Source of the DNA: an uncultured delta proteobacterium
Lineage (GTDB): Bacteria > Desulfobacterota > Desulfobacteria > Desulfobacterales > JAFDCJ01
DNA: 64,000 nt
Direction of reading: 5' to 3'
Assembly: GCA_963769935.1 (NCBI GenBank)
Contig: CAVYNY010000035.1
Span: 147,676-211,675 of the forward strand
Positions 28,282 to 55,474 of this stretch are shown here, in pieces (the stretch's first letter is position 1; each line of letters begins with the position of its first letter). The notes beneath the pieces are model-generated. The model ran no database searches. It saw only the letters and a program-made list of their open reading frames with translations, and had not been told where the DNA came from. The position numbers were made by a program, and so were the translations under genes.

Positions 28282-29157
28282 TTATCCTGCAAATTCCGGT
28301 TCGACAATTCCCCTGACATCCGTCTTGATGCGGAAGAGGTCGCCGGCCAGAGGCTGCTCTTTGCGCTGGCTTTCGCTCAAGTTGTACCAGGCGGTGGTGA
28401 TGTACAGTTCATCCAGGTGTTCGCCGCCAAAGCCGATACAGGTGACCAGTTCGACCGGAAGGCGGATTTCCCGCTCGAGTTTTCCGGCGGGATCATAACG
28501 CGTTACGCGCCAGCCGCCCCAGTGGGCGGCCCAGACAAATCCCTGGCTGTCCACCGTGAGTCCGTCCGGCATTCCCGCCTCTTTTGGTATTTCAACAAAC
28601 ACGCGGCGGTTGCCGACACCACCCGTCTCGGCTTCATAATCGTAGGCCGTGATTTTATTGGCAAACATTTCGGAAACATACAACGTCCTGCTGTCCGGGC
28701 TGACGGCAATGCCGTTGGATAGAACCAGGTTTTTATCGAGTTTGTGAAGACCGCGGTCCGGATCCAGGCGGAAAAGAGAACCGTCCGCCGCCTCGAGCCG
28801 CGCGGAATTGTATGATCCGACCACCAATCGTCCCTGCCGGTCGATCATGCCGTCGTTGCACTGAATGTCAGGATTCCCGGCAAAGGGATCGACGATAAAT
28901 TCACACGCATTGGATTGCCGATCCCAAAAGGCCAGACCGGAATCGGTGACCAGGAGCCAGCCGTCGGCCGTTCTGCGGCACAACCCTCTCACCGGCATGT
29001 CGGGCTTGAACGACGCATACGCGGCTGTTGCGGGGTCGAGGCGGTAAATCGTGTGGGCTCCGATGTCGACCCAATACAGGGCTTTTTCTTCCGGGACCCA
29101 GATGGGGGTCTCGCCCAACTCATTCTGCACGGGTAAGTAGTGTTCCAGGCTGCTCAT
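28282..29157 (-). CDS. SMP-30/gluconolactonase family sugar lactonase
   Basis: LGETPIW, LYWVDI, CNDG, SNGI, PDGLTVD, FGG...LYITTA. Confidence 0.92.
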   Translation of the reverse strand: MSSLEHYLPVQNELGETPIWVPEEKALYWVDIGAHTIYRLDPATAAYASFKPDMPVRGLCRRTADGWLLVTDSGLAFWDRQSNACEFIVDPFAGNPDIQCNDGMIDRQGRLVVGSYNSARLEAADGSLFRLDPDRGLHKLDKNLVLSNGIAVSPDSRTLYVSEMFANKITAYDYEAETGGVGNRRVFVEIPKEAGMPDGLTVDSQGFVWAAHWGGWRVTRYDPAGKLEREIRLPVELVTCIGFGGEHLDELYITTAWYNLSESQRKEQPLAGDLFRIKTDVRGIVEPEFAG

Positions 29158-33018: not shown

Positions 33019-33031
33019 AATTGGGCGCTCC

Positions 33032-34619: not shown

Positions 34620-35402
34620 TTAAAGAGGCAGGGCGCTGACACCCAAAGTCGACAGTGTCTGCAATTTTTCTGCAAATTCATCGATGCTCACTACCTGATA
34701 TCCGAAATCTTTTGCCGTCCGGGCGTCATCCGGCCCGGCGTAGCCCCAGGTGGCAAAAATGAGCGAGATCGTCTTTTCTCCCCGATTGAAGTGTTCGTCG
34801 AGTTCGCGCAAGTTTTTCACGGAATCATCGATGAATGCATAGGTCGGCTTGCTGAACCGCCGCATGATCTGCGTCATATTCTGGATCTTAGTGGTGCCGT
34901 TATCGCCCGAGTAGATGTTGTCCCTGCTGATCTGCAGACCGAAATAATTGCAAAGGTACTGGGTGGCTTCATAATTTTTATTGGTCAGCAACACCAGGTC
35001 GCTGCCTTGTCTTTCAACGATAATCCGCCACAACGGCTGCACCGGTTGATTGAGTGCTGTCCAGGCCTTGATGTCCTTTTCCTTAAAGCGGCGGCGGGTC
35101 TGAAAAAAGCGAATCGTCCGGTCGGCCACAGGCTCTTCGATCCGGCTGATGAGGTCATCATACTGCTGGGGGCTCAACAGTTTGTGCGGCGTCGACCCGG
35201 CGGCCTCAAGACACCATTGCATCAGAACCGGTGCATCGCCGATGGGCTGGACATGAAAACGGTTTTTCAGAAATAAATCGAGCGCCTTCTGCGGCAGCTG
35301 GTCCAGGCGGGAGGCAACATCTCCCTTCAGCATGTTGTAAACCGTAACCGCAACCTCAGGCAATGAGTCCATCAGCACCCCGTCAAAGTCAAATATCAGC
35401 AT
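34620..35402 (-). CDS. HAD-superfamily hydrolase
   Basis: FDFDGVLMDS, LTNK, FIDD, TWGY. Confidence 0.85.
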   Translation of the reverse strand: MLIFDFDGVLMDSLPEVAVTVYNMLKGDVASRLDQLPQKALDLFLKNRFHVQPIGDAPVLMQWCLEAAGSTPHKLLSPQQYDDLISRIEEPVADRTIRFFQTRRRFKEKDIKAWTALNQPVQPLWRIIVERQGSDLVLLTNKNYEATQYLCNYFGLQISRDNIYSGDNGTTKIQNMTQIMRRFSKPTYAFIDDSVKNLRELDEHFNRGEKTISLIFATWGYAGPDDARTAKDFGYQVVSIDEFAEKLQTLSTLGVSALPL

Positions 35403-35768: not shown

Positions 35769-37307
35769 TTACCCTTGCGCCAGCCGGCTCAAGCGGTCCC
35801 AGGGCTCCCGCATGCCTTCCACCAGTCTTTTATACTCCGTGTAGCGGGCCAGATAGGAGGGTGCCGCTGCGGGGTTGGGTTCCTGGCGGCGCTCAACCCT
35901 AACGGCCGTTTCGACCGCATCGGCATGGTCCTTGTAGACACCGACACCGATTCCGGCACTCATGGCTGCGCCGCGGGCACCGATTTCGATTCCATCCGGT
36001 ACTTCCATCGGCAGCCGCAGCGTGTCGGCAAATATCTGGGTCCAGACGGCACTGTGGGCGCCGCCGCCGCTTAGGCGTACCGCTTCAATGTGAATGTCGG
36101 ACCCGCGGGCATCACGCAATTTTTCCAGATGGCTCAAGTGGCTGTAGACAACACCTTCATAGAGCGACCGCAGCATATGAGCCTTGGTGTGCCACCCGGC
36201 GATGCCGTAAAATCCGGCCCGGGCGGTTGCCTGCACGTTGGAGCCGAAAAGGAAAGGATGGAAAATAATGTCGCTGCCGCCCGGCGGCAGGCTGTCCACG
36301 ATTTCACTGCAAACGTCGTAAACCGAAATTCCGCGCTCGGCGGCCATGGCTTTCTCTTCGGCACAAAATTGGGTGACGAACCATTCCAGGTTGGTGGCCG
36401 ATGTTGCACTGGCTTCTACGGTAAGCCATAAATTTGGAACGGTAAAGATGGTGGTCATAAACAACGCGGGGTGGACGATCGGATCGGAGGTGACAATTTC
36501 GTTAATGCTCCAGGTTCCGGCAATGATGCTCACCTGGTCCGGCCGATAAACTCCGGCGCCCAGTGCGGAGGCATCCACGTCAAAAAGGCCGCCGACGACC
36601 GGTGTTCCGGCGGCCAGCCCCGTGGCCCGGGACGCATCCGGCGTCACCCGGCCGGCAATGTCAAAGCTTTGCACCAGCGCCGGCAGGGCCGGGCGCAATT
36701 CTTTTAAATCGTAAAGATCCAACAGTTCATCGGAGTAACACTTATTGCGCACATCCAGCAGGCTGGTGGCGCTCATGTCGGTATAGTCGGACGTGATTTC
36801 ACCCGTCAGGCAATACTTGATGTAGTCTTTGACCATCAGGACGGCCCCGACGCGCCGGTAGACCTGGGGCTCGTTGCGTTTGATCCAGGTCAGCAAGGCA
36901 TTCGGCTGGGCGGGCCAGAAAGACTGGGTCGTATAAGGAAAGACCTGATCATGCAGGCGGCTGCGGTTCCAGGTATCGATAATATCGGCCGCGCGGGTAT
37001 CCAGCGACTGGATGCCGGGACGGGCCGGACGCCCTTCTTTGTCGATCAGGTACAGCCCGTTGCCGTGGCCCGTCGTGCCGACAGCGATGATTTGCTCCGG
37101 CTTGATACCGGACAGGTTCACGGCTTCTTTAATCGTCATGGCCGTTTTCTGCCATAGCGCGTCCATGCTTCTTTCGGTCCAGCCCTGCCGAGGATACTCG
37201 GATTCAACTTTGCGGCTGGTCACCTGGATTTCGCGGCCCTGCAGGTCAAAAATTGCCGCTTTGGAGATCGTGTTGCCGTTGTCGATGCCAAGCAGATATT
37301 CAGACAT
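35769..37307 (-). CDS. lyxK: FGGY kinase, L-xylulose/3-keto-L-gulonate kinase (LyxK)-like
   Basis: GHGNGLYL, SLDTRA, KDY, GGLFDV, AGTWSIN, ATSATNLEWF, HPFLFGS are typical of the LyxK subfamily. Confidence 0.75.
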   Translation of the reverse strand: MSEYLLGIDNGNTISKAAIFDLQGREIQVTSRKVESEYPRQGWTERSMDALWQKTAMTIKEAVNLSGIKPEQIIAVGTTGHGNGLYLIDKEGRPARPGIQSLDTRAADIIDTWNRSRLHDQVFPYTTQSFWPAQPNALLTWIKRNEPQVYRRVGAVLMVKDYIKYCLTGEITSDYTDMSATSLLDVRNKCYSDELLDLYDLKELRPALPALVQSFDIAGRVTPDASRATGLAAGTPVVGGLFDVDASALGAGVYRPDQVSIIAGTWSINEIVTSDPIVHPALFMTTIFTVPNLWLTVEASATSATNLEWFVTQFCAEEKAMAAERGISVYDVCSEIVDSLPPGGSDIIFHPFLFGSNVQATARAGFYGIAGWHTKAHMLRSLYEGVVYSHLSHLEKLRDARGSDIHIEAVRLSGGGAHSAVWTQIFADTLRLPMEVPDGIEIGARGAAMSAGIGVGVYKDHADAVETAVRVERRQEPNPAAAPSYLARYTEYKRLVEGMREPWDRLSRLAQG

Positions 37308-41750: not shown

Positions 41751-42716
41751 TTACCCTTCGACCTTTGTGGTTATCAGCGTGTAAACGGCGACCGTGCCGA
41801 TGAGCACGATGCCTTTGGCAAAAGACTGCCAGTAGGGGGGTATCCATAGAACGGTCATACCGATCGACACGCACATGATGATCAGGGCGCCGACGACCGT
41901 CTTCAACACGGACCCCTCACCGCCGTAAAAACGGGTGCCGCCCAGAAGAATGGCAATGATGGCTTCCAGTTCCATCAGATTGCCGGTCATCGGATCGCCC
42001 ATGGACAGGTAACTTGCTCTGGCTATGCCGCCGATGGCAGAAAGAAAGCCGGTAATCATATACAGCACCCAGATCGTCCCGACAACATTGATGCCGGATA
42101 GTTCCGCCGCCGTCATGTTGCCGCCGATGGCCGCGGTATACTTGCCGAGCACCGTCTTTTTTTGAACAATGACCATGATGACGATGACCGCCACCGCAAC
42201 GTAAAACGCTGCCGGCAGTCCCAGGAACACGGGCGCCCGGGCGAAATCATTGATGCCCGCCGGCATGTTGCCTTTAATCAAGCCGATCTGGCGCGGGGTC
42301 AGGGTCCAGGCAATCCCCCGAAACAGGTACAGGGTCACCAGCGTGGCGATGACGGACACAATGCGCAGCTTCATCACCAGCAGGCCGTTGATGTAGCCCA
42401 TCAAAACCCCCAGTCCCATGGTCAGCAGCGTGCCCCAGAAGAAGCCAAACCCGTTTTTCAGCAGGATGCAATAGACGACACCGCTCAAGCTGACCATGCT
42501 GCCCACCGACAGATCGATCTGAGCGGCGATCATGATGAGGGTGGCGCCGCAGCTGACCAGCAATATCGGTACGGACATTCGCAGAATATTGACAATGTTG
42601 GCCGGATTCAAAAAGTTCATAGACACCGCACTGAACCCGATGACAATCAAAGCCAGCACGAGGAACACAAAGATGTTCTTGAAGGTCGTCCAGGTGAATT
42701 TGCTTTGCATTTCCAT
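41751..42716 (-). CDS. Sugar ABC permease
   Basis: IDLSVGS, GGNMTAAELSGI, ELEAIIAILLGG. Confidence 0.92.
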   Translation of the reverse strand: MEMQSKFTWTTFKNIFVFLVLALIVIGFSAVSMNFLNPANIVNILRMSVPILLVSCGATLIMIAAQIDLSVGSMVSLSGVVYCILLKNGFGFFWGTLLTMGLGVLMGYINGLLVMKLRIVSVIATLVTLYLFRGIAWTLTPRQIGLIKGNMPAGINDFARAPVFLGLPAAFYVAVAVIVIMVIVQKKTVLGKYTAAIGGNMTAAELSGINVVGTIWVLYMITGFLSAIGGIARASYLSMGDPMTGNLMELEAIIAILLGGTRFYGGEGSVLKTVVGALIIMCVSIGMTVLWIPPYWQSFAKGIVLIGTVAVYTLITTKVEG

Positions 42717-42736
42717 AATTAGCGTTCCTCAATGTG

Positions 42737-42858
42737 ATTGAAGATTGAAGATTTGTAGTTGTCGCTTCGCTCCGTCACCTTTTAGATAAATCTTTATAAA
42801 ATCGACCCGCCGCAGGCGGACATTAAATATTCAATTTACAATCTTCAATTTTCAATTC
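42737..42858. mobile_element. MITE-like element family B copy
   Basis: GATTGAAGATTGAAGATTTG...AAATATTCAATTTACAATCTTCAATTTTCAAT. Confidence 0.6.
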
Positions 42859-42861
42859 CGG

Positions 42862-43869
42862 TCATGTTGTTCTGTGGTCCAATGCAAAACGTTGCGATAG
42901 AATCGCGATCAGCGTGATGCCGCCCTTTACGATCGTCTGGATATCCGGCGACAACCCCAGCATGTTCAGCGAGGTGGACACGATGCCGAGGATGAATGCA
43001 CCCACGACGGCGCACATAACTGAGCCGAAACCGCCGAAAATGCTGGTTCCGCCCAGCAGGGTGATTACCAGCGCATCAAATTCAAAACCTTCGCCCAAGC
43101 TGGAAATACCCGCGTTGTGAATGGAACCCATGATGACCCCGATCAGCCCGGCTAGAAATGAACTTGCCAGGTATAGGATCGAAATGTGCCTTTCGACTTT
43201 GATGCCGGAGAGTTTGGCGGCTACCGGATTTGCGCCGATGTAATAGGTCCGGCGGCCGAAGACAGTCTTTTTTTCAATAACCAGCGCTATAATTACCAGT
43301 ATGACCATCAAAATAACCGAAGCATTGACCGTGCCGATCAGAGAGAATTCACCGAATTTTTTGAATACATAAGGCAGGCCGGCGTTGCGCTGCGAGCCCT
43401 GGGTGATAATCAGCGCAATGCCGCGCGCCAGCGACATGGTGCCCAGCGTGACAATAATGGATGCGACTTTCAAGCGGGTGACAAAAAAGGCGTTGATCGC
43501 ACCGATGAACATGCAGCAGACCAGGGTTGCTAAAATGGCAACACCGTAGGTCATGCCGAGCCCGCGGGCCAGTTCCATGCCGGCACCCGTGGGGGACTGG
43601 CAGAAATAGGCCGACAGGACGGCGCCCAAACCGACGATTCCGCCGACCGACAGGTCGAAATTGCCGCTGATTAAAAGAAACGTTACGAAAATTGACAGAA
43701 TGATAAGTTCCGCCTGCTGTGAAAGCTGATTTGAGATGGTATGGATATCAAAAAACCGGGGTACAAATCCGGATGCCGCGATGAAGAAAATGATCAACAC
43801 GCCGAACATGGATAAAACAATAAACGATTCATTGCTCATTTTTCCAATGGCTGATTTTTGTTCCGGCAT
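42862..43869 (-). CDS. Sugar ABC permease
   Basis: GNFDLSVGG, GANPVAAKLSGI, EFDALVITLLGG. Confidence 0.92.
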   Translation of the reverse strand: MPEQKSAIGKMSNESFIVLSMFGVLIIFFIAASGFVPRFFDIHTISNQLSQQAELIILSIFVTFLLISGNFDLSVGGIVGLGAVLSAYFCQSPTGAGMELARGLGMTYGVAILATLVCCMFIGAINAFFVTRLKVASIIVTLGTMSLARGIALIITQGSQRNAGLPYVFKKFGEFSLIGTVNASVILMVILVIIALVIEKKTVFGRRTYYIGANPVAAKLSGIKVERHISILYLASSFLAGLIGVIMGSIHNAGISSLGEGFEFDALVITLLGGTSIFGGFGSVMCAVVGAFILGIVSTSLNMLGLSPDIQTIVKGGITLIAILSQRFALDHRTT

Positions 43870-45353
43870 TATTCGCCTCCCGTGCAAATATGGAGCAGTT
43901 TTTCACTGTCGATATCCCGGCAGTTGTCCAGTCCCGCTCTCAGGTTCCCGTCATAGAGCAGAAAGATCCGATCGCACATGTTCATGATTTCCGGCAATTC
44001 GGAGGAGCAGAAGATGATGGACTTGCCCTCCTGTGATAACTGGCGCACGATTTTGTAAATCTCGCTTTTGGCCCCCACATCGACCCCGCGGGTCGGCTCA
44101 TCCAGGATGAGCAGATCCGCTTCGGCAAAAAGGCACTTGGCAAAGACGACTTTTTGCTGGTTCCCGCCCGAGAGTTTGGCAACTTCTTTTTCGGCGCTGC
44201 TGGTCATGATAGCCAGGCGCTTGATGAAGTCCAGGGTGGCGTGCAGATCTTGGCGGCTGTTGATAAAACCCATCTTTGAAATTTTGCGCATGTTCATGAC
44301 GGGGATATTGCTTCTGATCGTCAGGAGCGTGAAAAGGCCCTGCGATCTTCTTTCTTCCGGCACCATCGCGATGCCCGCGCGGATCACCTTGTCCGGCAAA
44401 TGTTCAAGCTTTTGGCCTTTGAAAATAATCTCGCCCGTGTATTTGTCCGCGCCGTATATGGCCCGGGCCAGCTCGGTCTTGCCGGCACCCACCAACCCGT
44501 AAAACCCCACAATTTCGCCGCGCTTTACCTCGAAGGAAATATCCTTCAGTTTTTTGGTGCTCAGATTTTTTACGACCAGCAGGTTGGCGGCATCGGTCAG
44601 GTCCCTGGCAACGTATTGCTCGTAGACCGTCTTGCCGATCATCAGTTTGATGAGCTCACCGCGGTCTTTTACCTCGGTGATCGGCTTGGTGTCGATATGC
44701 TTTCCGTCCCGCAAAACCGTAACATAATCTCCGAGTTCAAAAATTTCGTCCAGGCGATGGGAGATATAGATAACGGTGACGTTTTTCGCTTTAAGGCCCT
44801 TTATAATTTTGAAAAGCCGCTGAATTTCTTCCTCTGAAATGGCTGCCGTCGGCTCATCCATTATAATAACGTCCGATTCCGATGCCACGGCCCTGGCAAT
44901 TTCGACCATCTGCTTCTGGGCCACACTCAACTCCGATACCCGCTGTTTGGGGTTGATGGACGGATCGATGGTTTCCAGCGCATTGACCATTTTTTTGATC
45001 TTGTCGGTTTTGCGCAGAAAACCAAACCAGGTGTCCTCCATGCCGAGGGTCAGGTTTTCTTCAATGGTGAGCTGGTCGACGACATTCAACTCCTGAAACA
45101 GGGTGCTGACGCCTTTTTGTTTGGCATCCCTGGGATTCTGCGCAATATACTCTTTGCCGTTCATGAGGATGGTGCCGGCGGTCCTGGCAAGCGCGCCGGT
45201 GAGGATTTTGATCAGAGTGGATTTGCCGGCCCCGTTTTCTCCGACCAGGCAGTGAACGGTGTTTTTATTGATGTTGAAGCTGACATCATCAACGGCCCGA
45301 ACGCCCGGGAACTCTTTGGTCAGGTTTTTTATCTCCAGCAGAACAGCGCTCAT
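43869..45353 (-). CDS. Sugar ABC ATP-binding protein
   Basis: GENGAGKST, MDEPT, LSGGNQQKV, DEPTRGVDVGAK. Confidence 0.95.
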   Translation of the reverse strand: MSAVLLEIKNLTKEFPGVRAVDDVSFNINKNTVHCLVGENGAGKSTLIKILTGALARTAGTILMNGKEYIAQNPRDAKQKGVSTLFQELNVVDQLTIEENLTLGMEDTWFGFLRKTDKIKKMVNALETIDPSINPKQRVSELSVAQKQMVEIARAVASESDVIIMDEPTAAISEEEIQRLFKIIKGLKAKNVTVIYISHRLDEIFELGDYVTVLRDGKHIDTKPITEVKDRGELIKLMIGKTVYEQYVARDLTDAANLLVVKNLSTKKLKDISFEVKRGEIVGFYGLVGAGKTELARAIYGADKYTGEIIFKGQKLEHLPDKVIRAGIAMVPEERRSQGLFTLLTIRSNIPVMNMRKISKMGFINSRQDLHATLDFIKRLAIMTSSAEKEVAKLSGGNQQKVVFAKCLFAEADLLILDEPTRGVDVGAKSEIYKIVRQLSQEGKSIIFCSSELPEIMNMCDRIFLLYDGNLRAGLDNCRDIDSEKLLHICTGGE

Positions 45354-45382
45354 GGTTGTGCTCCCCCGTTTTATCGTTTCAA

Positions 45383-45412
45383 GGGGAGGAAGCCGTGGGG
45401 CGGCTCCCTCCC
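45383..45412 (-). terminator. GC-rich hairpin after the binding-protein gene (partial terminator or mRNA stabiliser)
   Basis: GGGAGGAAGCCG-TGGGG-CGGCTCCCTCCC, between the binding-protein and ATPase genes. Confidence 0.45.
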
Positions 45413-45460
45413 GTCTAAAGATAAATTAAGCGTTAACCCGGATGTGAATTGCTGCCGCGA

Positions 45461-46477
45461 TTAGAATTTAGGCATTTTGGCATTGGCCTGAAACTCATCA
45501 TTGTACCATTTCACGGCCTCATCCGGTGTCATGCTCCAGTAGCCGACCAGGGAGTTGGGGATAAAGATCGGTTTGCGGTTCGCCGGGTCAACCTGCTTGA
45601 TTTTGCCGCTTTTGATGTCGAACAGGTTGTCGATCCGGCCCATGCCGGTTTCACGCGGCGGCAGGCCCATTGACATTTTCAGGGAGGAGCTTGGATCGAA
45701 TACTTCATACAGTTCATTTTCCGGGCAGTCCACACTGATCACGATTTCGGTCAGGGGAACACCGTCTTTCATCTTACCGCGGCCAATCGCTCGCAACCCG
45801 GGCATGGTGCCGTCGGTCAGGTTGGCAGCCTCGGAGTAGATGATGCAAAGGTCCGGATGCGCCTGAACCAGGTCCTGGATGGTTTTCTTGGCCACATCCG
45901 GACCCCGGCTGGAATCAAAGCAGCCCAGATCTACCGCATCGGGGGCCACCGACTTGACGCCCTTGACGAATGGAACCGTGCGTCCCTCTGCAACCGCTTC
46001 ATTGTCCGGCCATCCCAATTCAACCATCACAATGGGTTTGTCGGGATGGGCTTTGATCCACTGCTCGGCCGCAATTTTGCCCATTTTAAAGGAAATTTCC
46101 GCTTCACCGGGTCGGATACACGGAATATCTATGGGCATTTGATCGAAGTAACTGTTGAGAATGATGCCCTTTTTCAGGGCTTCTTCAAGGCCGGGTTTGG
46201 CAGATTCACCCTGCCAGATGTGAAGGGTTGCCATGTTCATGCCCTGGGCAATCATCTGGTCGACGTTGGCGGTCATGGTAGCGACATCGGATTTGCCGTC
46301 AAAGACCTGGACATCGGCACCGTATTTTTCTTTGGCGTATTTTTTGGCCCAGTAGGATTGGGCCTGATGAAAGCCGTTTTTCAGATCGGAGACAAAATAG
46401 GCGATTTTTATGGAATCTGCATAAGCGGTAGCTGCAAAAGCCAACATAACGATGCACACCAATACGATTTTTTTCAT
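45461..46477 (-). CDS. Sugar ABC substrate-binding protein
   Basis: Signal peptide MKKIVLVCIVMLAFAATAYA; periplasmic binding protein type I pattern; first gene of the ABC operon. Confidence 0.82.
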   Translation of the reverse strand: MKKIVLVCIVMLAFAATAYADSIKIAYFVSDLKNGFHQAQSYWAKKYAKEKYGADVQVFDGKSDVATMTANVDQMIAQGMNMATLHIWQGESAKPGLEEALKKGIILNSYFDQMPIDIPCIRPGEAEISFKMGKIAAEQWIKAHPDKPIVMVELGWPDNEAVAEGRTVPFVKGVKSVAPDAVDLGCFDSSRGPDVAKKTIQDLVQAHPDLCIIYSEAANLTDGTMPGLRAIGRGKMKDGVPLTEIVISVDCPENELYEVFDPSSSLKMSMGLPPRETGMGRIDNLFDIKSGKIKQVDPANRKPIFIPNSLVGYWSMTPDEAVKWYNDEFQANAKMPKF

Positions 46478-46765: not shown

Positions 46766-47764
46766 TTACGCTTCCGGCGCTCCCAGCGCTTCGACATCCC
46801 GGCGGATTCGTTTCAGGTCGCCAGCCTCTATCACAAGGTCGCCCGCCTTGACATTGTCCTTGACGTGCGCTGGTTTTCTGGCACCGCACAGGACGAAGGT
46901 GATGCCCTCCTGCGCCATGGTCCAGGCAATCACCAGCTGGGATAATGAGCAATCGTATTTTGACAGCAGATCGGTCCAACCCTCGAGCATATTCAGAACT
47001 TTTTTGCGGTTCACCGGCTGAAACCAGGGAATATTATTGCGGTAAGCACCTTCCGGAAACGTCTGACCCATGCCGATTTTGCCCGTCAGCAAACCCTGCT
47101 CGAGCGGAGAATAGGCCAGCGCGCTGATGCTGTTGGCGTGGCAGTACGGCAGTATTTCTTTTTCGATCTCCCTGTCCAGCATGCTGTATTTGGGCTGAAT
47201 GGCGTCCAGGATGCCGGCGGCCTGGTATTGTTTTATGTGTTCAAGGTCCACGTTGGAGGCGCCGATGGCTCGAATTTTACCTTCTTCTTTGAGCTTCAGC
47301 AGGCATCGCATGGTATCCTCAATAGGATACTTGTCCGGTTCCAGCGACTGCCAGTGGGTGTGGTACAGATCTATATAATCGGTACCCAATCGCTTGAGGC
47401 TGTCCTCGAGTTCTTCCACGATCGTTGCCGGAAGCAGGCAGCGCTTGACATGCTTGTCGCCCATCTCAAAAAATGAAGAGCCTCTGTCATCTTTCCACCA
47501 CAAGCCGCATTTGGTGGATAAAATCACCTTATCCCGTTGTCCCTTGATGGCCTTGCCCACGACCGTTTCACTGTGACCCCAGCCGTAGGCGGGGGCGGTA
47601 TCAATCATGGAAATCCCTGCCGCAATGGCGGCCTGAATGGCCTTGATGGATTGATTGTCGTCTGAATCGCCCCACCAGGGCCCGCCGCCGACCGCCCAGG
47701 TACCGAGCGCGACCGCCGAAGCTGAGATGTTCGTTTTACCCAGGGTTCGATATTGCATTTTCAC
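46766..47764 (-). CDS. Aldo/keto reductase
   Basis: LGTWA, IDTAPAYGWGHSE, STKCG, SLKRLGTDYIDLY, IGASN, AYSPL. Confidence 0.93.
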   Translation of the reverse strand: MKMQYRTLGKTNISASAVALGTWAVGGGPWWGDSDDNQSIKAIQAAIAAGISMIDTAPAYGWGHSETVVGKAIKGQRDKVILSTKCGLWWKDDRGSSFFEMGDKHVKRCLLPATIVEELEDSLKRLGTDYIDLYHTHWQSLEPDKYPIEDTMRCLLKLKEEGKIRAIGASNVDLEHIKQYQAAGILDAIQPKYSMLDREIEKEILPYCHANSISALAYSPLEQGLLTGKIGMGQTFPEGAYRNNIPWFQPVNRKKVLNMLEGWTDLLSKYDCSLSQLVIAWTMAQEGITFVLCGARKPAHVKDNVKAGDLVIEAGDLKRIRRDVEALGAPEA

Positions 47765-48186: not shown

Positions 48187-48975
48187 ATGGGAAACAACTA
48201 TATCATACCTAGTCTGGACCGAGCGCTCGAGATCATTGGATTTCTGGCAAAGCAGCCCAAGGGGTGCGGCATTACGACCATTGCGGATAAATTGGGGTAT
48301 CCCAAGAACAGCGTATTCCGTATCTTAAGGACCCTGGCCAACAAAGGGTATATTATTGAAGCCGATCGGCTGTATCAGCTTTCCGCCAAATTTCTTGCTG
48401 TCGGCTATTCCGCGGTAGGTGAAGCACACATGGTGGAAAAGGCGATCGATGTTATGCGGGAACTCAGAGATGAAGTCAACGAGACCGTCCTGCTCGGCAC
48501 TCTCGTCGGCAACAGGGGCGTCATATTGGAACAGGTTCTCAGCACGCAGCCACTGAAGGTGATGGTCGATCCGGGCCATAATTTCGCGCTGCACACGGCC
48601 GCGCCCAGCAAAGCCATGCTGGCCTATATGAACCCGGAAGACCAGAACAAAATTATTGATTCGATCACTTATACCCGCTTTAACGAGAACACGATAATTA
48701 CCAAAGGACAGTTTGTAAAAAATTTAAAAGAGGTCAGGGAGAAAGGTTACGCAACCGATCTGGCGGAAGAAATCATCAACCTGCACTGCGTGGCCTGCCC
48801 GATTTTTAATCATAAACTGGAACCGATTGCTTCGATTTGGATCACCGGACCCTCCGACCGATTGCAGCCGGAGCGTTTTGATGAGTTCGGCGGTATTATC
48901 GGGGAATTCGCGCTGAAGATTTCACGACGCTTGGGCTATGAGCCGGAATTAAACGGGCACAGCGCCTATAAATGA
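48187..48975 (+). CDS. IclR family transcriptional regulator
   Basis: SLDRALEII...YPKNSVFRILRTL; HTAAPSKAMLA, GYATD..E, CVACPI. Confidence 0.95.
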   Translation: MGNNYIIPSLDRALEIIGFLAKQPKGCGITTIADKLGYPKNSVFRILRTLANKGYIIEADRLYQLSAKFLAVGYSAVGEAHMVEKAIDVMRELRDEVNETVLLGTLVGNRGVILEQVLSTQPLKVMVDPGHNFALHTAAPSKAMLAYMNPEDQNKIIDSITYTRFNENTIITKGQFVKNLKEVREKGYATDLAEEIINLHCVACPIFNHKLEPIASIWITGPSDRLQPERFDEFGGIIGEFALKISRRLGYEPELNGHSAYK

Positions 48976-49442: not shown

Positions 49443-50291
49443 TTATCCCAGCTGGCTCAGCAGCTTGTCAAGCTCCCGCTCGTCGAGACTGTAGCTGTGC
49501 TGTTCGGTGGGAAACTGACCCGATTCAACCTCGTTGCGAAATTGGGTTATGGCCGAAACGGTGACCTGCTGCAGATCGGCGTAGACTTTCAGAAACCGGG
49601 GCGACAGCTCCTTGAACAGGCCCAACATGTCATGGGTCACCAGGCCCTGTCCATCGCAGTGCACGCCGGAGCCGATGCTGATGACGGGAATTTCCAGGCT
49701 GCGGGTGATTATTTCACCCAGGCTCACGGGCAGGCACTCGATGATCAGCCCAAAGGCCCCGCTTTTGGCCATGGCCAGGGCATCGTTGATCATTTGTTTT
49801 GAAGATTCGGCATCCTTGGCCGGCAGGCTGATTTTGCCGGAAAGCACAATCCGCTGTTTGGTGACCCCGATGTGGCCCAACACGGGAATGCCCGATTCTA
49901 CGATGCCGCGGACAATCTCGGCCGAGCGGGCGGTTCCTTCCAGGTGGACGGCATCCGCCCGGCCCTCCTTCATGATGCGGGCGGCGTTGCCGACCGCTTC
50001 GCTGACGCCGTTGTATGAACCGAACGGCAGGGTCGTCACAACCAGGGCGGATTTGACGCCGTTTCTTACCGCCCGGGTGTGGTAGGTCATTTCATCGATT
50101 GTGACCGAAACCGCTTCGGGACGGCCGTTGCCGATGGTTCCCACCGCATCACTCACCAGGACAATGTCGATTCCAGCCTGGTCCAGAAACGAAGCCATTG
50201 GATAGTCATAAGCCGTGAGGAGCGTTATTTTCCGGTTGCTCCTTTTTTTGCTTTGAAGCGCTGCGACGGTCATTTTAGGACGGGTATTCAT
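49443..50291 (-). CDS. Ketopantoate hydroxymethyltransferase (PanB)-like protein with a divergent active site
   Basis: LTAYDY, GHIG, IECLP, ISIGSG..CDGQ.LV.HDMLG. Has LVSDAVG (vs LVGDSLG), VTTLPF (vs ADLPF) and VHLEG (vs VKIEG). Confidence 0.85.
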   Translation of the reverse strand: MNTRPKMTVAALQSKKRSNRKITLLTAYDYPMASFLDQAGIDIVLVSDAVGTIGNGRPEAVSVTIDEMTYHTRAVRNGVKSALVVTTLPFGSYNGVSEAVGNAARIMKEGRADAVHLEGTARSAEIVRGIVESGIPVLGHIGVTKQRIVLSGKISLPAKDAESSKQMINDALAMAKSGAFGLIIECLPVSLGEIITRSLEIPVISIGSGVHCDGQGLVTHDMLGLFKELSPRFLKVYADLQQVTVSAITQFRNEVESGQFPTEQHSYSLDERELDKLLSQLG

Positions 50292-50320
50292 TGGATGTTC
50301 CTCGGCCGGCCAAGCCGGCA

Positions 50321-50521
50321 TTGAAAATTGAAGATTGTAAACTGAATATTTGTGGCTGTCGCCCCCGCAGCGCCAGCGCTTGCGTGGCGTGTGCGCCGCA
50401 TGTCGCTCCATCCTTAGCAGAAGGGGATCGTATCCTCTCCGAGCCGTAGGATTTACGAGCCGGAGGCTTAAATATTCAATACCTGTTCGCCTCCGGAGGA
50501 TTCAATCGACAATATTCAATC
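50321..50521. mobile_element. MITE-like element family B copy inside the BMC operon
   Basis: ATTGAAAATTGAAGATTGTAAACTGAATATTTG...AATATTCAAT. Confidence 0.6.
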
Positions 50522-50567
50522 ATTTAAAGATGAAGAAAATATTACTTACCGAATTTGCGAATCTATA

Positions 50568-50903
50568 TTAGACAATAATTTTGGGCAGCAGATCCTCCAC
50601 CATCAGATTGGGGTTCGGCAGCATTTTGACCGACTCGACTTCGCCGACCAGTTTGGCCGCCTTGGCCCCGGCCTCCAGAGCGGTGCGCACCGCTCCCACA
50701 TCGCCCCTCACCATGATCGTCATGTAGCCGCCGCCGATGGCACACCGCTGCGTCAAGACGATATTGGCCGCTTTGGCCATTGCATCCGCCGCCTCGATAC
50801 ATGCCACCAAACCTTTGGTCTCAATCATTCCCAGAGCCCTCATTTCAGGGTCAAGGGCGCCAGCCGCCTGCGAGTTTTGATTTTCCATAATCTTTTTAGC
50901 CAT
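50568..50903 (-). CDS. BMC-H hexameric shell protein
   Basis: ALGMIETKGLVACIEAADAMAKAANI...IGGGYMTIMVRGDVGAV. Confidence 0.95.
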   Translation of the reverse strand: MAKKIMENQNSQAAGALDPEMRALGMIETKGLVACIEAADAMAKAANIVLTQRCAIGGGYMTIMVRGDVGAVRTALEAGAKAAKLVGEVESVKMLPNPNLMVEDLLPKIIV

Positions 50904-50906
50904 GAT

Positions 50907-51197
50907 TTATTCCTTTCTGTAACGTATTTTATCATCGTATTGAAGCGAGTCTAATATGCCGACAATCGCGGCATCAACCGGCGAGTTCTTGTAATCCGTG
51001 GCCAGGCGGGCTGAGCTTCCCCGGCTGACCATGACCAGTTCACCCGGCCCCGAACCGACCAGGTCAACAGCCAGCAAAGGATCTCCGCTGATGTCCCCAT
51101 CGATATTGGTCGGGCAGATAATTAATATTTTTGTAGAGCTCAGCGCCGCATGTTTGACGGTTGCCACTGCCGTGCCCATAACCTTAGCGATTATCAT
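50907..51197 (-). CDS. BMC-P vertex protein (EutN/CcmL family)
   Basis: MIIAKVMGTAVATVKH...AVDLVGSGPGELV...GSSAR...PVDAAIVGILD. Confidence 0.95.
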   Translation of the reverse strand: MIIAKVMGTAVATVKHAALSSTKILIICPTNIDGDISGDPLLAVDLVGSGPGELVMVSRGSSARLATDYKNSPVDAAIVGILDSLQYDDKIRYRKE

Positions 51198-51285
51198 GGA
51201 TGACCTCATTTCATATGTTACGGTTAGTTTTAATTTCTACCAGTTAATGTTTGCTTACCCTAACTCGGAGCCACAGAGGGCGTAG

Positions 51286-51396
51286 AATTGAAAATTGAAG
51301 ATTGTAAATTGAATATTTGCGGATGTCGCTTGGCGCCGTTCATTTTAACCGGAAAGAATACCTTAAATATTCAATATTCAATCGAAAATATTCAAT
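51286..51396. mobile_element. MITE-like element family B copy inside the BMC operon
   Basis: AATTGAAAATTGAAGATTGTAAATTGAATATTTG...AAATATTCAATATTCAATCGAAAATATTCAATT. Confidence 0.6.
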
Positions 51397-51459
51397 TGTT
51401 ACAAGTTGGCGATCATGTTCAAGTACAATTTCTTTGGTACAAATTTTATTTCAAGGATC

Positions 51460-51801
51460 CTACTGGTTCTTGATGCGCTTAATCCTTTCGACCAGCTTAT
51501 CTACGACCGGCCGGGATTGGGTGGCCGGCTTGCCGGACGCCGCTGCTGTTCTCGCTGCCGGCCGTCTCTGGCATCCCCTGGGTTTGCCGCTGAACGTGTG
51601 TACTCTGCCGACGGATTGGGGACGCGCAGGATTGAATGTCTCCATCGATGCGCCGGACGCTCTTTCCGTTATGCGCAGGCCCAGCATGGCAGCGGTCTGC
51701 TTTGCCAGGTCCGTCAGCACGACGTTTTTATCAACGCAGATCTCACTTTGGCCCTGATCGGCAAAATTTTCAATGTCTTCAGCCGAATAAAAAGTCTTCA
51801 T
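51460..51801 (-). CDS. BMC-associated protein: EutQ-N-terminus-like domain, linker, putative encapsulation peptide
   Basis: FYSAEDIE...ICVDKNVVLTDLAKQTAAMLGLRITE resembles the EutQ N-domain; A/P/R/S-rich linker; terminal amphipathic helix VVDKLVERIKRIK. Confidence 0.65.
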   Translation of the reverse strand: MKTFYSAEDIENFADQGQSEICVDKNVVLTDLAKQTAAMLGLRITERASGASMETFNPARPQSVGRVHTFSGKPRGCQRRPAARTAAASGKPATQSRPVVDKLVERIKRIKNQ

Positions 51802-51834
51802 TTCAAGCGATCTCCTTTGTCCGCCTCCGGCGGA

Positions 51835-52434
51835 TTAAATGCCCTTTATGGCTTGCACAGCCGCTTCGCGGCCGACCATCACCTCCGAGTCGCTGCCGGC
51901 GATATACAACCGTCCATAGCGTCCGGAAGGCTGATAGTTTACCAGGGTGATGTTGGCCGCCTTTTCCGCTTCGTTGGCCGCCAGCCAGACATAGGCCGCC
52001 GGCGCAATTTCCAGGACGCACAGCGTCTGGCCTGCCAGCAGCAAACCGCCGCGGCTGGTCTGGTTTACCAGCTGAGCTTCGTACGGGTTTACCTTGGAGA
52101 CCATTTTAACGGAGACAACCTCCGGCTTTATGCGGTCGCGCTCAGTCAGGCCAAAACGCCCCAGAGCATTTTGCCCGGCGACCTGAACCGCCTCCTGAAA
52201 GGCGCTGTGAATCTCAAGTGTGCCGTACTCTCTTTCAACCCGCAACAGGCCGGGGCGCACGTCCGCAGTTTTCAAAGCGGTGTCCAGAACCTCGTATACG
52301 TCGCCGGCAGGTGCCAATTCCATAAATACTTCCGCCATGCCTTCCACCGGCACATCGCCCTGCAGCAGGATGCCGGTGAGGGCGGCAAATTGCGGTTGCA
52401 TCGAATCTATCAGAATGTAGGTTCTAAGCTCCAT
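51835..52434 (-). CDS. BMC-T shell protein, double-stacking CcmP/CsoS1D type
   Basis: MELRTYILIDSMQPQFAA...ELAP...VEREYG.LEIH...LEIAPAAY...ANEAEKAA...GRYGRLY. Confidence 0.9.
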   Translation of the reverse strand: MELRTYILIDSMQPQFAALTGILLQGDVPVEGMAEVFMELAPAGDVYEVLDTALKTADVRPGLLRVEREYGTLEIHSAFQEAVQVAGQNALGRFGLTERDRIKPEVVSVKMVSKVNPYEAQLVNQTSRGGLLLAGQTLCVLEIAPAAYVWLAANEAEKAANITLVNYQPSGRYGRLYIAGSDSEVMVGREAAVQAIKGI

Positions 52435-52472
52435 TTTACATTTCCTTTGCAATGTTTCTTTAAGCCGTTGAA

Positions 52473-52793
52473 TTAATCTGCCAATGACCGGACCACCTTG
52501 CGGTCCCCATTGGGAATGATTGCCTCGGTAAATCGGTGCGGCCGCGCAATGACGTGGCCCGCGATCAATTGACCTGCCTTTTTTGCGGCCGCCACGCCGG
52601 CATCGACCGACGCCTGGACGGCACCGACTTCGCCGCGCACCATAATGGTCACGTATCCGCCTCCGATTTCCTCCCGGCAGGTGATACTGACATTGGCGAC
52701 TTTGGCCATTGCATCCGCCGCCTCGATGGAGGCAACCAGCCCGACGGTTTCGACCATGCCAAGTGCAGTTTTTTGCAAATGCTGTTTTTCCAT
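52473..52793 (-). CDS. BMC-H hexameric shell protein
   Basis: ALGMVETVGLVASIEAADAMAKVANV...IGGGYVTIMVRGEVGAV...HVIARPH. Confidence 0.96.
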   Translation of the reverse strand: MEKQHLQKTALGMVETVGLVASIEAADAMAKVANVSITCREEIGGGYVTIMVRGEVGAVQASVDAGVAAAKKAGQLIAGHVIARPHRFTEAIIPNGDRKVVRSLAD

Positions 52794-52977
52794 AACGATT
52801 CTCCTGTTTGTTGGGTTGCTTGGTTGTAAAACTGAAATTTGGGTAACACTTTAAATGCCTGGAAAAGCCACGGAATGGCCGAATATTCACGAAATTAATT
52901 TTTCATTTTAAGGTTCCCTGCTTTTATCCATTGCAATTATTCGTGGTTATTCGTGTAAATTCGTGGCTTACTATTCA

Positions 52978-54051
52978 TTAAATTCCGAGTATCTGGTTGG
53001 CCGCAGCGATACCCGAATTTAAATCGACCCTGTGCCCGAGCCCGGCCAGCGCATTGCCGGCTGCCGTCAATAGCTGAATAACCTTGCCGGAAGAAAATTC
53101 CGAGATCTGGGCCGGGTCGAGATAGAAGGCGCTGTGATCGACTTGGCCGAAGGCTTTGCTCGGCCCGAAAATCCGCTCGATTCCTTTTACGAGGTCGTTG
53201 ACATTGATGCCCTCGGGGGCAAAAATGGCCGTGCTGGTTCCTTGGCAAAATTTTCCGGGGGCATCACAGCCGGGACAATCGGCGCCATCGTTGGTCAGCA
53301 GCAAATCCATCTCGCTGACACCCCAGCGGACCGCTTTGGCGGCCGTCTCGTAGTCGGAAGCATCCGTTTTGCGCGCGGCAGAACCCGGCCGGGGTGCGCC
53401 CCACAGGCGGGCGATCGTCGAACGGATGGCCATGGCCGCTGCGACCGGGTCTTTGGCTGCGTGAATCGCACGCCCGGTAATAAGGGCAGTGACCGGAAGG
53501 CTTTGAAAAAATGGAATGGACTCAAGGGTTATCCCGCCGGTGACCGTAACTTTGTACCCCATGTCGATCAAGCGCTGAATGGTGTCCAAATCGTTTTGAG
53601 ACCACTGGCGGTTGGAGGCCTCCTCGTCCCAACCGCGATGGTATACCATCCATTCGATCCCGACCTGCCGCCATTCCTTGGCGCGGGCGATAATGTCCCG
53701 CACGCCGGTAAGTTCCATCAGCACCGCTTTGCCATATTCATTGGCGGTTTTCAGGGCGGATTCGACGGTGGCCATGGGGGCGCCGCCAATAACCGTCATC
53801 AGGTCCGCTCCGGACTCAAAGGCCATCTTGGCTTCCAGCCAGCCGACGTCGGGCGTTTTAAAGTCGGCCAGAATCAGGTTGTCCGGACAAACCTCGCGCA
53901 CGGCTCTGATGGCGTCCAGCCCGGCGGCCTTGCAAAGGGGGGTGCCGATTTCAAAAATGTCGACGTGCGGCGCCGTTTTGGAGGCTATGGCGATGGCCGG
54001 GGGCAGGGTGATGAAGTCTAACGCAAATTGTAACATTGGAATTGTGCTCAT
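52978..54051 (-). CDS. KGPDC/HPS-family (OMP decarboxylase fold) enzyme fused to an extra ~125-aa C-terminal domain
   Basis: LQFALD, EIGTPL, ADFKTPD (DxKxxD), ELTG, YHRG, VTVTGG, GRAI, ending RLWG as in UlaD/SgbH. A linker follows, then a domain resembling the class V aminotransferase small domain, with CPGC-x6-C. Confidence 0.88.
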   Translation of the reverse strand: MSTIPMLQFALDFITLPPAIAIASKTAPHVDIFEIGTPLCKAAGLDAIRAVREVCPDNLILADFKTPDVGWLEAKMAFESGADLMTVIGGAPMATVESALKTANEYGKAVLMELTGVRDIIARAKEWRQVGIEWMVYHRGWDEEASNRQWSQNDLDTIQRLIDMGYKVTVTGGITLESIPFFQSLPVTALITGRAIHAAKDPVAAAMAIRSTIARLWGAPRPGSAARKTDASDYETAAKAVRWGVSEMDLLLTNDGADCPGCDAPGKFCQGTSTAIFAPEGINVNDLVKGIERIFGPSKAFGQVDHSAFYLDPAQISEFSSGKVIQLLTAAGNALAGLGHRVDLNSGIAAANQILGI

Positions 54052-54088
54052 TTCACGATATCCTTTATGCTGATTGTGGTTGTTGTCC

Positions 54089-54961
54089 TTAAAGCTGCAT
54101 CCCAATGGGATTGTAATAGGTCCTGAGCGCAGCGGCGGTTGCTTCCAGGTTGCGCTTCAGAGGCCGGCCCAGTTTGAACAAAACTCCCAGATACAATAAA
54201 TCCACCAAGTACAGTTGGCACACCTTGGCGTCGATGGCCCCGCCGTACAGCGGCGTGTCCCTGTATTCGAGGGGTGTGGCCAGGCATATTTCGGCCGTCC
54301 GGGCCAGGGCGGATTCGCGATCACTGGTCAGGGCGATGGTTGTGGCGCCGTTTTTAGCGGCAATCTTAACGGCATCGACCACATGTTTGGTAATGCCGGT
54401 GTTGGAGACGCCGAAAGCCACCATTTTGGGTTTGATCATGGACGCCGAAACGGTCTGCATATAGCCGTCGGCGTAGATCACACAGTTGAGGCCGGCTTTG
54501 GTAAACAGGTGATGGGCGGCGTGAGCAATGATGGCCGAGCCGCCGATGCCGTAAATATAGATTTGCCCGGCACGGGCAATGGCGTCGATGGCGTTGTTCA
54601 TGTCTTCGACATTCAGACTTTGCTGGGTCTTAGCGATGGAGCCGGACAGGGATTCGGACAGCTTGCGGCCGATTTCGGGCGTGGCGTCGCCTTCATGAAT
54701 GGCCGGCGGTATGTTTTTAAATTCATCCACCGGACTTGAAGATGCGGCCATCGATAGTTTGAGGTCCTGAAATCCCTGGAGGCCGATGACCCTGCAAAAG
54801 CGGCTGACCGTTGTTTCGCTGACCTTCAATCTTTTGGCCAATTCCGTTATTGAAAAATCAAGCCGTTCCTGGGCGTGCTGCTGCAGATAGTCCGCAATTT
54901 TTTTCTCTGATTTCCTCAAAATCGAATAATTGGCCTGAAGATGTTGAACGAAATTGTTCAT
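54089..54961 (-). CDS. RpiR/MurR family transcriptional regulator (HTH plus SIS)
   Basis: LRKSEKKIADY...SITELA...VSETTVSRFCR.IG..GFQDLK; YGIGGS, SNTG.T. Confidence 0.95.
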   Translation of the reverse strand: MNNFVQHLQANYSILRKSEKKIADYLQQHAQERLDFSITELAKRLKVSETTVSRFCRVIGLQGFQDLKLSMAASSSPVDEFKNIPPAIHEGDATPEIGRKLSESLSGSIAKTQQSLNVEDMNNAIDAIARAGQIYIYGIGGSAIIAHAAHHLFTKAGLNCVIYADGYMQTVSASMIKPKMVAFGVSNTGITKHVVDAVKIAAKNGATTIALTSDRESALARTAEICLATPLEYRDTPLYGGAIDAKVCQLYLVDLLYLGVLFKLGRPLKRNLEATAAALRTYYNPIGMQL

Positions 54962-55005
54962 AATAATAAGGAAATATTTTTCATAAATAGTAAAAAATAA
55001 AATAA

Positions 55006-55051
55006 TGTAAAAAATTTTTTCCATAATAGACGAGTAAAAACGGACTGTCAA
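55006..55051 (-). promoter_or_regulatory. sigma70 promoter of the BMC operon plus a near-perfect palindromic operator
   Basis: Minus-strand TTGACA (55051-55046)-N17-TATTAT (55028-55023); TGTAAAAAATTTTTTCCA (55006-55023) directly downstream. Confidence 0.65.
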
Positions 55052-55474
55052 GAAAAATTTTCACCAAATTTTCAGGGATGCGGGAAAAAATATTGAATCT
55101 GAGAATAGGGGTTAAGTTATTGAAATTGAATCTAATGGTGACGAGGGAGAATTCGTGGAATTTGAATTTTGAGTTTTTGCCGGAAAAATTATTCGAGACT
55201 ATCCAAAAAGTATAATTATATAGCCGAACTGCCGATAAAATAATGTTCTCAGCACTATTTGGCGGGCAATCCTGCAGATTTCCATACCCGGGTCGGTATA
55301 GTCGTATAAAATGTCAAGATCTTTTTAGGCTGGGCATAAAATTAATTCAATATGAGATCCTGTTCGCCTGAATTAATTAAATTTCATAAAATAGCTGGAA
55401 AGGGCCGGGCAATTCAGCTAATAATACCATGGTCGGCCTTCGGGCATTTTTTTTTGAGAGGTGAAAGGTTTCCA

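Follow-up and report, generated by a model that had tools for sequence, protein, structure and literature searches.

A conserved microcompartment cassette of Desulfobacterales with a KGPDC-clade fusion enzyme, a remodelled PanB paralog and a linked sugar cluster

We find that an uncultured delta proteobacterium (Desulfobacterales; assembly GCA_963769935.1) carries what is apparently an undescribed, conserved type of bacterial microcompartment (BMC), in which two enzymes are remodelled and which has a defined sugar pathway upstream. The genes lie in a 64,000-nucleotide stretch of contig CAVYNY010000035.1 (positions 147,676 to 211,675 of the forward strand; hereafter the window), where one minus-strand unit combines shell genes with a fusion protein of the clade of KGPDC, the decarboxylase of 3-keto-L-gulonate 6-phosphate, and a paralog of PanB, the ketopantoate hydroxymethyltransferase (KPHMT). 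Most catabolic microcompartments share a core consisting of an aldehyde-forming enzyme, an aldehyde dehydrogenase (AldDH) and coenzyme A (CoA) recycling; the seven-gene cassette reported here lacks that core, is compact enough to be expressed whole, and is conserved between two lineages of anaerobes that are far apart and abundant in sediment. All eight genes named in a preliminary description of this DNA, made from the sequence alone, are present in the order and families it gave, as are its complete shell set (H, H, T-dp and P), its flanking genes (a divergent PBP1B and a convergent iclR) and, before rpiR, the promoter it had claimed, here a near-consensus sigma-70-like match (Table 1).

Table 1. 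Features of the microcompartment unit, its flanks and the linked sugar cluster (positions in the window)
Feature	Position	Strand	Basis or remark
Sigma-70-like promoter, TTGACA-17-TATTAT	55023..55051	-	11/12 consensus; consensus match only
rpiR, RpiR/HexR-family regulator, HTH_6 and SIS sugar-phosphate sensor	54089..54961	-	PF01418+PF01380
PF00215 fusion, 357 aa	52978..54051	-	PF00215 covers residues 1-220
Fusion barrel, putative KGPDC-clade TIM barrel, residues 1-220	53392..54051	-	UlaD similarity, tree
Fusion C-terminal tail, class V aminotransferase small domain	52978..53370	-	hmmsearch, Foldseek, VIA
BMC-H 1, KAA..RPH-type hexamer	52473..52793	-	PF00936 E 2.5e-24
BMC-Tdp, CcmP-like gated trimer	51835..52434	-	NF053796 E 1e-62
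orf113 adaptor, 113 aa	51460..51801	-	no Pfam hit
BMC-P pentamer, genome's sole copy	50907..51197	-	PF03319
BMC-H 2, ~20-aa N-terminal extension	50568..50903	-	PF00936
PanB paralog, remodelled site	49443..50291	-	PF02548
PBP1B, divergent flank	55352-57778	+	
IclR regulator, head of linked sugar cluster	48187..48975	+	kept beside akr in relatives
Aldo-keto reductase, YdjG-like (below cut-off)	46766..47764	-	conserved in cluster
Monosaccharide-type ABC importer: binding protein, ATPase, two permeases	41751..46477	-	
Sugar-binding protein of importer	45461-46477	-	ortholog survey
FGGY kinase, LyxK-like (L-xylulose/3-keto-L-gulonate kinase)	35769..37307	-	Atlas cluster name
HAD-family phosphatase beside kinase	34620..35402	-	conserved in L099, L100, L101, L141
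SMP-30/gluconolactonase-family lactonase	28282..29157	-	PF08450; clustered ortholog in L099, L100, L101, L141

The unit is not a chance arrangement, since its gene order recurs across loci from GTDB genomes and metagenomes, which supports a conserved linkage of PF00215 and PF02548 enzymes with shell genes. A close-pattern scan of GTDB gives 6 loci and a metagenome profile scan 188 relatives, the best 80 of which were taken, for a total of 86. Gene order is constant across 53–97% identity wherever the contig is long enough; among loci with enough downstream sequence, a BMC-H follows the fusion in 56 of 57, T-dp is found in 35 of 36 and BMC-P in 27 of 28, while the PanB paralog is present in all 25 loci with at least 4 kb downstream, in counts that are not independent of one another. 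The exceptions are L059, where the match is truncated with barely enough sequence, and L066, where the fusion and a BMC-H are followed by permease genes. In every long locus the two enzymes flank the shell genes on both sides.

The GTDB loci are titled Desulfobacterales, Desulfosarcina, uncultured deltaproteobacteria and Olavius Delta 1 symbiont. A distant group (53–65% identity) is probably from Anaerolineae, because one homolog is named 'Anaerolineales bacterium' and a homolog of its linked short-chain dehydrogenase/reductase (SDR) 'Chloroflexi bacterium'. The rpiR gene belongs to loci of the Desulfobacterales type; the distant group has none or carries a SorC/DeoR-type gene instead, and the cassette there often comes after such a regulator or after genes for a complex resembling acetoin dehydrogenase. 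Distribution is patchy, with the cassette in 6 of 23 genomes of the host's family and, among 151 genomes sampled from the order, in the host alone, two further matches being plain ula-type KGPDCs. As a control, a profile of HxlA, the synthase of 3-hexulose 6-phosphate (HPS), matches in 41 of 401 genomes of the phylum, and none of the 34 stretches fetched from these has the fusion's tail or shell genes beside the plain HPS-family gene. The lineage that donated the cassette is not resolved by the tree, in which the fusion clade is open. RNA contigs of relatives, from all four sediment runs of one study, cover the cassette and sugar cluster, mostly at 90–99% identity, which speaks to presence in the library and not to level or strand. 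Contig depth gives no ranking of the genes, and we draw nothing from the very sparse RNA cover at 54869-55500.

The barrel of the fusion shares 42% identity with UlaD of E. coli (Foldseek TM 0.96), and a tree of 30 HPS, 2 KGPDC and 12 fusion sequences places the fusions beside KGPDC, apart from HPS, with support of 100/100. Judged by sequence, then, the PF00215 enzyme is grouped with KGPDC and not with HPS. The barrel keeps D12, E34, D63, K65, D68, E113, H138, T171 and R194, and so has the equivalents of E112, H136, T169 and R192 that are expected of a KGPDC (UlaD/SgbH) together with the phylogenetic grouping; the one expected residue that it lacks is Arg139 of E. coli UlaD, which is W141 in the fusion and tryptophan in 120 of 120 homologs. 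Solved KGPDC variants mutated toward HPS are titled E112D/R139V/T169A in the PDB, and at these three positions HPS has Asp, a hydrophobic residue and Ala, KGPDC has Glu, Arg and Thr, and the fusions have Glu, Trp and Thr; R194 is also KGPDC-type. What would mark an HPS (HxlA), namely D112, A169, a score above the TIGR03128 cut-off and the partner HxlB, is not found in the fusion or its host. The roles of the KGPDC and PanB residues are those that we presume, no paper giving the roles having been found.

The remaining ~130 residues of the fusion match serine-glyoxylate aminotransferase at E 5e-4 in hmmsearch and class V aminotransferases in structure (Foldseek E 1e-5; VIA Z 15.0, root-mean-square deviation 2.5, 115 aligned), and an Atlas search with the whole fusion matches the TIM barrel only. 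Three cysteines of the tail are invariant (C259-x2-C262-x6-C269), a motif shared by the full-length aminotransferases P0130, P0139 and P0143, whose subfamily is the likely source of the tail. Since the unit encodes no pyridoxal phosphate-binding large domain, the tail is probably a structural module. A complex prediction of the tail with Zn and orf113, which might share a four-cysteine site, scores 0.03 and so weighs neither for nor against such a site. Descent of the tail from a BUF3 aminotransferase is unsupported, with no match to the enzyme of the BUF3-like locus in genome G151. P0130, P0139 and P0143 themselves represent a class V aminotransferase subfamily with C-x2-C-x6-C in the small domain, possibly a metal site.

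The PanB paralog passes the family cut-offs (TIGR00222, 278 over 207.6 bits; NF001452, 300 over 272 bits), and its active site is remodelled: GDS is replaced by SDA, D84 by T87, K112 by H116 and P141 by K145, with the equivalents of D45, E114, H136 and E181 retained. Two of the six strictly conserved site residues, D84 and K112, are thus lost; the accessible part of PMC13488298 lists D84, K112, E114, H136 and E181 as strictly conserved in KPHMTs, and that of PMC7610986 describes a folate-free activity of KPHMT, that of a metal-dependent aldolase for keto acids. The replacements are seen in all 25 linked copies aligned (a set without the 4 copies that are partial or frameshifted) and in 118–120 of 120 homologs, with D84 as Thr in 118 and K112 as His in 119. 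Because they are invariant, the replacements do not look like decay, and they suggest that the paralog has acquired a new catalytic site. Elsewhere the genome has two canonical panB genes, with better scores than the paralog and with the canonical motifs intact. A new reaction may thus become assignable to the PanB fold, whose paralogs are annotated automatically as pantothenate enzymes. A URO-D-family gene follows panB in 4 of 6 genomes and was rejected as a core member, there being no host ortholog; three different URO-D/MtaA-family genes lie in or beside the sugar system (L022:8052-9158, window 31987-33060 and L141:4346-5401).

Among the shell proteins, T-dp has CcmP and HO T-dp as its best PDB matches and is 53% identical to the T-dp of the BUF3-like locus of G151 and 39–43% to six MIC6-like T-dp proteins; the pores of such proteins are proposed as conduits for sugar phosphates in the portion of PMC11585597 available. 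An alignment of 26 sequences divides orf113 into an N-domain of ~45 residues, a P-x-G-C-Q motif that never varies and, at the C terminus, an amphipathic helix (mean hydrophobic moment 0.69) shaped like an encapsulation peptide. Searched against 320 open reading frames (ORFs) of the relatives' other BMC loci, the N-domain profile matches BMC-associated proteins only. These weak matches (E 5e-5 to 5e-4) are to three proteins of MIC6 loci and to a class V aminotransferase of a BUF3-like locus, in the extension at its N terminus. Extensions of this kind in BUF3 are proposed as targeting signals (PMC8217296). Against the PDB, the orf113 profile finds nothing credible. The stand-alone adaptor and the repurposed aminotransferase domain are possible cargo-loading parts, and we infer that both enzymes are encapsulated in the shell.

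The shell appears to be the only one that the host has. In this 8.0-Mb, 96.7%-complete genome all matches to PF00936 (three) and PF03319 (one) fall in the unit, and a separate main BMC locus, which the preliminary description had asked about, is not found, there being no shell genes outside the unit. That text was also right that the window lacks AldDH and PduL: the ORF list holds no AldDH, tblastn with two BMC-type AldDH queries is negative in the window, and a PF06130 search of the whole genome gives no PduL match (control, matches in 2 of 14). The same two queries have no match in the 86 loci and find only proteins of 21–29% identity in the rest of the host genome. Read from its genes, the unit is a BMC main locus by the Sutter 2021 definition; it lacks the AldDH (PF00171) and PduL (PF06130) of the canonical metabolosomes (PDU, EUT, GRM, PVM, SPU, RMM, MIC and MUF), and falls with the BUF loci, which are of unknown function and lack AldDH.

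We find that the sugar cluster beyond iclR, overlooked in the preliminary description, belongs to the system. Its kinase is found in exactly the 6 of 23 family genomes that have the fusion, and its binding protein (at least 90% identity) in the same six and one 81%-complete metagenome-assembled genome (MAG), including two genomes in which cluster and cassette lie on separate contigs. The aldo-keto reductase, importer, lactonase, kinase and HAD phosphatase recur in the clusters of the relatives fetched (lactonase 4 of 4), and in the distant loci an SDR and a 50–71% homolog of the binding protein follow panB. The kinase falls in Atlas next to a rank-2 cluster named L-xylulose/3-keto-L-gulonate kinase (score 0.98), a lead and not an assignment; PDB searches with the SDR, kinase and binding protein name no substrate. 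UlaE comes after the cassette in L060, and in L022 and L025/L026 the genes just downstream include 2-hydroxyacid oxidoreductases, which belong to two unrelated families. HxlB is not found in the host or in 4 of 5 relatives, and a homolog abuts the kinase cluster only in the Olavius symbiont. The host also has a formyl-tetrahydrofolate (THF) synthetase.

The cluster holds a second importer, whose binding-protein gene (40374-41427, minus strand) is split into frames of 180 and 182 residues; the split is probably an assembly error, since relatives have one frame of ~340 residues and all four RNA runs differ by one base near 40940. The SDR (L076:14012-14761, 249 aa) represents a large conserved family with at least 120 homologs at 84% or more, for which homolog searches return generic names only and a PDB search no close solved structure. 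The genome's AraD was considered as a member of the system and rejected, as it is part of an L-arabinose operon; that operon (G000:C18:110000-123400, L143) is a complete L-arabinose/galactose operon (araB, galT, galK, araA, araD and a galM-like gene), showing broad sugar use in a genome of a sulfate-reducer lineage.

An architecture of organelle plus sugar pathway is very probable. All of the chemistry proposed for it is drawn from residues and gene neighbours, and we tentatively prefer, at a probability of roughly 45%, a stand-alone cofactor-free organelle in which the fusion decarboxylates a 3-keto-aldonate 6-phosphate that the PanB paralog supplies. An imported sugar or lactone would be converted to a keto-aldonate, phosphorylated at C6 in the cytosol by the LyxK-like kinase, and let in by the gated pore of T-dp. 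The PanB paralog would then enolise the 2-keto-aldonate (6-phosphate) and re-protonate it as the 3-keto isomer via an enediolate, with E185 as base and H116, the gained histidine, as second acid/base; a 2-keto acid intermediate would fit the 2-hydroxyacid oxidoreductases that adjoin the three loci named above, an association that is not general. The known route from 2-oxo- to 3-oxo-tetronate follows a parallel isomerase logic. The KGPDC-clade enzyme would decarboxylate the unstable beta-keto acid to a pentulose 5-phosphate and CO2, with orf113 tethering cargo to the shell via its encapsulation-peptide-like helix and the Cys-rich tail serving as a structural or docking module. Decarboxylation by the fusion is somewhat probable and, if it occurs, the isomerase role of the PanB paralog stands at even odds. 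Such a core would run without NAD, CoA or folate, and this would account for the absence of AldDH, alcohol dehydrogenase and phosphotransacylase.

Several observations weigh against this proposal. E. coli uses KGPDC without a shell, which leaves the need for confinement unexplained. The fusion scores below both KGPDC NCBIfam cut-offs (210 against 250 and 208 against 294 bits), W141 is hydrophobic as is the HPS residue in 30 of 30 sequences, and loss of D84 and S46 could abolish metal-bound enolisation of a keto acid in the PanB paralog. Neither the fusion nor the PanB paralog has a visible encapsulation peptide. UlaE is not found in the host or any of 5 relatives, such that L-xylulose 5-phosphate, the very product that L060 suggests, has no known exit there; the 2-hydroxyacid dehydrogenases occur in 3 loci only and have no host ortholog; and many of the loci are near-identical MAGs.

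The preliminary description had favoured one-carbon (C1) chemistry, arguing from canonical HPS and PanB activities that the shell confines formaldehyde. As stated this argument is unsupported, as the first premise fails on the KGPDC-type E113, T171 and R194 and the missing HxlB, and the second on the replacement of D84 and K112, while the hydroxymethyl-branched sugar it proposed as substrate would be a poor fit to a kinase like LyxK and an active site of the KGPDC type; we favour its fallback, in which a sugar acid undergoes CO2/enediolate chemistry. The relay it described, with the PanB paralog removing the hydroxymethyl group of a branched sugar acid and the PF00215 enzyme acting as an HPS that fixes the formaldehyde on ribulose 5-phosphate, draws on two folds that are both capable of formaldehyde aldol chemistry and on the HxlB beside the cluster in one genome; the fusion nonetheless lies outside the HPS group, lacks D112 and A169 and scores below the HxlA cut-off, HxlB is not found in 5 of 6 genomes, and the co-inherited kinase is LyxK-like, so that formaldehyde fixation is unlikely and the relay as a whole highly improbable. 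Less improbable, though still doubtful, is an organelle that confines formaldehyde released in the reverse direction: the W141 enzyme would cleave 3-hexulose 6-phosphate, made by the kinase, e.g., from a hexitol oxidised at C3, by retro-aldol chemistry into pentulose 5-phosphate and formaldehyde, which the PanB paralog would capture on a small keto acid or on THF, in a folate analogue of archaeal Fae-Hps. This proposal gives the shell its usual purpose, containment of a toxic volatile aldehyde, and can draw on the position of R139 among the three residues mutated toward HPS, on the loss from the PanB paralog of what we take to be substrate and metal ligands, on the formyl-THF synthetase of the host and on the HxlB homolog that abuts one kinase cluster. 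A precedent is Fae, proposed to capture formaldehyde beside archaeal HPS (PMC5241800, in the part available). It has to contend with E113, T171 and R194, with a clustered lactonase that suggests an acid substrate, with HxlB in only 1 of 6 fusion-bearing genomes, and with a folate that must cross the shell or cycle in it, no recycling enzyme being encoded. Its folate-dependent form, a KGPDC-derived retro-aldolase with PanB as formaldehyde-activating enzyme inside the shell, we regard as a little more doubtful again; it would feed sugar carbon directly into C1 metabolism, both in sulfate reducers of sediments and in the Olavius Delta 1 symbiont and Anaerolineae, and a formaldehyde-confining shell of either form would be a ready scaffold for synthetic C1 metabolism.

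The remaining alternatives give one or both enzymes a lesser part. PanB forms five-fold rings, and the paralog might be a non-catalytic scaffold or ligand sensor that organises the lumen around the KGPDC-clade enzyme as sole catalyst. The loss of 2 of 6 strictly conserved catalytic residues and the two canonical panB genes would allow this, but the replacements are invariant across 60–90% identity and the paralog retains four residues of the acid/base or metal kind, a pattern that resembles selection for a new site and makes a purely structural role improbable. The shell genes might also be satellites or relics serving another BMC, with both enzymes cytosolic. Further BMC loci do occur in 4 of 5 related genomes, the three fetched being MIC6-like (AldDH, PF01266, PF04324, PduS), and the enzymes lack encapsulation peptides; yet the host and G155 (MAGs 97% and about 90% complete) have neither other shell genes nor a MIC6 main locus, the unit owns H, T and P genes, six family genomes hold a BMC-P without the fusion, and the shell genes of each long locus stand between the two enzymes. 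A satellite is accordingly unlikely, and of all these readings the one to which we give least weight. The cofactor-free decarboxylating organelle remains our preference, and the cassette could reveal further purposes of a shell, be it the confinement of an unstable beta-keto acid or enediol, of CO2 or of formaldehyde.

The claim of an undescribed BMC class agrees with the 2021 catalog, in that no match is found among its written type descriptions and HMM table, from which PF00215, PF02548 and PF01418 are absent (PMC8217296; locus diagrams not compared). Nor did we find any of the outcomes that the preliminary description held would contradict it: assignment to a known type, lack of conserved linkage, or a satellite relation to another locus. 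The catalog does have, in the portion available, an 'unassigned' bin, where a member of the cassette could sit unnamed (PMC8217296). Literature searches by title or abstract start find no description of the locus, and no paper pairing a microcompartment with ketopantoate hydroxymethyltransferase, or panB with a shell protein, was found, subscription papers lying outside the search. Two further papers (PMC4814558 and PMC10176493, each available in part) serve as background only.

Among the types that could be compared, BUF3 (PMC8217296) is closest in shell inventory (two H, one P and one T-dp, as here) and in T-dp, and the aminotransferase extension of the BUF3-like locus in G151 is the one that weakly matches the orf113 N-domain; the cassette, however, has none of the BUF3 cargo, which consists of a complete class V aminotransferase, a deamidase, POR/TPP and proteins that bind CoA, and keeps only an aminotransferase small domain as a tail. 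BUF1 and BUF2 differ in having xanthine enzymes and a methyltransferase-like protein with a Cys protein, respectively, as cargo. SPU shares a sugar-phosphate substrate, a C-C cleavage as signature step, often a CcmP-like T-dp, and hosts among Chloroflexi and Deltaproteobacteria, whereas its DeoC aldolase (PF01791), RpiB (PF02502), AldDH and BMC-P triplet are not in the cassette (PMC8217296, PMC11585597, the latter in part). PanB proper is alike in fold, in HMM scores above the cut-off and in D45/E114/H136/E181; the cassette copy, the genome's third and not beside panE, differs by D84T, K112H, GDS to SDA and P141K. The ula and yiaK-S (sgb) operons of E. coli encode the 3-keto-L-gulonate pathway, and the cassette system resembles them in its LyxK-like kinase, its KGPDC-clade enzyme (42% to UlaD) and, in L060, UlaE; it differs in R139W, the fused Cys-rich tail, the shell genes and the PanB paralog, and in that UlaE is not found in six Desulfobacterales genomes. 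Archaeal Fae-Hps, an analogy for the formaldehyde proposal alone, likewise has a PF00215 enzyme beside a possible formaldehyde-capturing partner, but with the Fae fold, tetrahydromethanopterin, a true HPS and no shell.

Several gene calls in the window were revised. With the promoter at 55051-55023, the start of rpiR is ATG 54961 and not TTG 55051; other corrected starts are ATG 54051 for the fusion, ATG 52434 for T-dp and ATG 50291 for the PanB-like gene. The gaps at 51201-51460 and 50292-50567 carry short REP-like repeats found at more than 100 places in the genome, and hidden genes in these long gaps around BMC-P and BMC-H 2 were rejected, the gaps being genome-wide repeats. The glpA gene (anaerobic glycerol-3-phosphate dehydrogenase; 59822-61449, minus strand) is split in two frames and is intact (~530 aa) in L001 and L020.

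Two other BMC types were met in the related genomes. L098:4441-8701 (G151:C18) is a compact BUF3-like locus in a Desulfobacterales genome, with a class V aminotransferase bearing an N-terminal extension, P, H, T-dp and an amidohydrolase, and with POR-like genes lying upstream of these; BUF3 in the catalog is known from Clostridia and a single spirochaete only (PMC8217296), and the catalog had 3 MIC6 loci only. The MIC6-like loci L095, L096 and L097 adjoin genes resembling glutamine synthetase and glutamate synthase and putative sarcosine/proline-oxidase-like FAD/FeS subunits, neighbours that hint at an amine substrate for MIC6.

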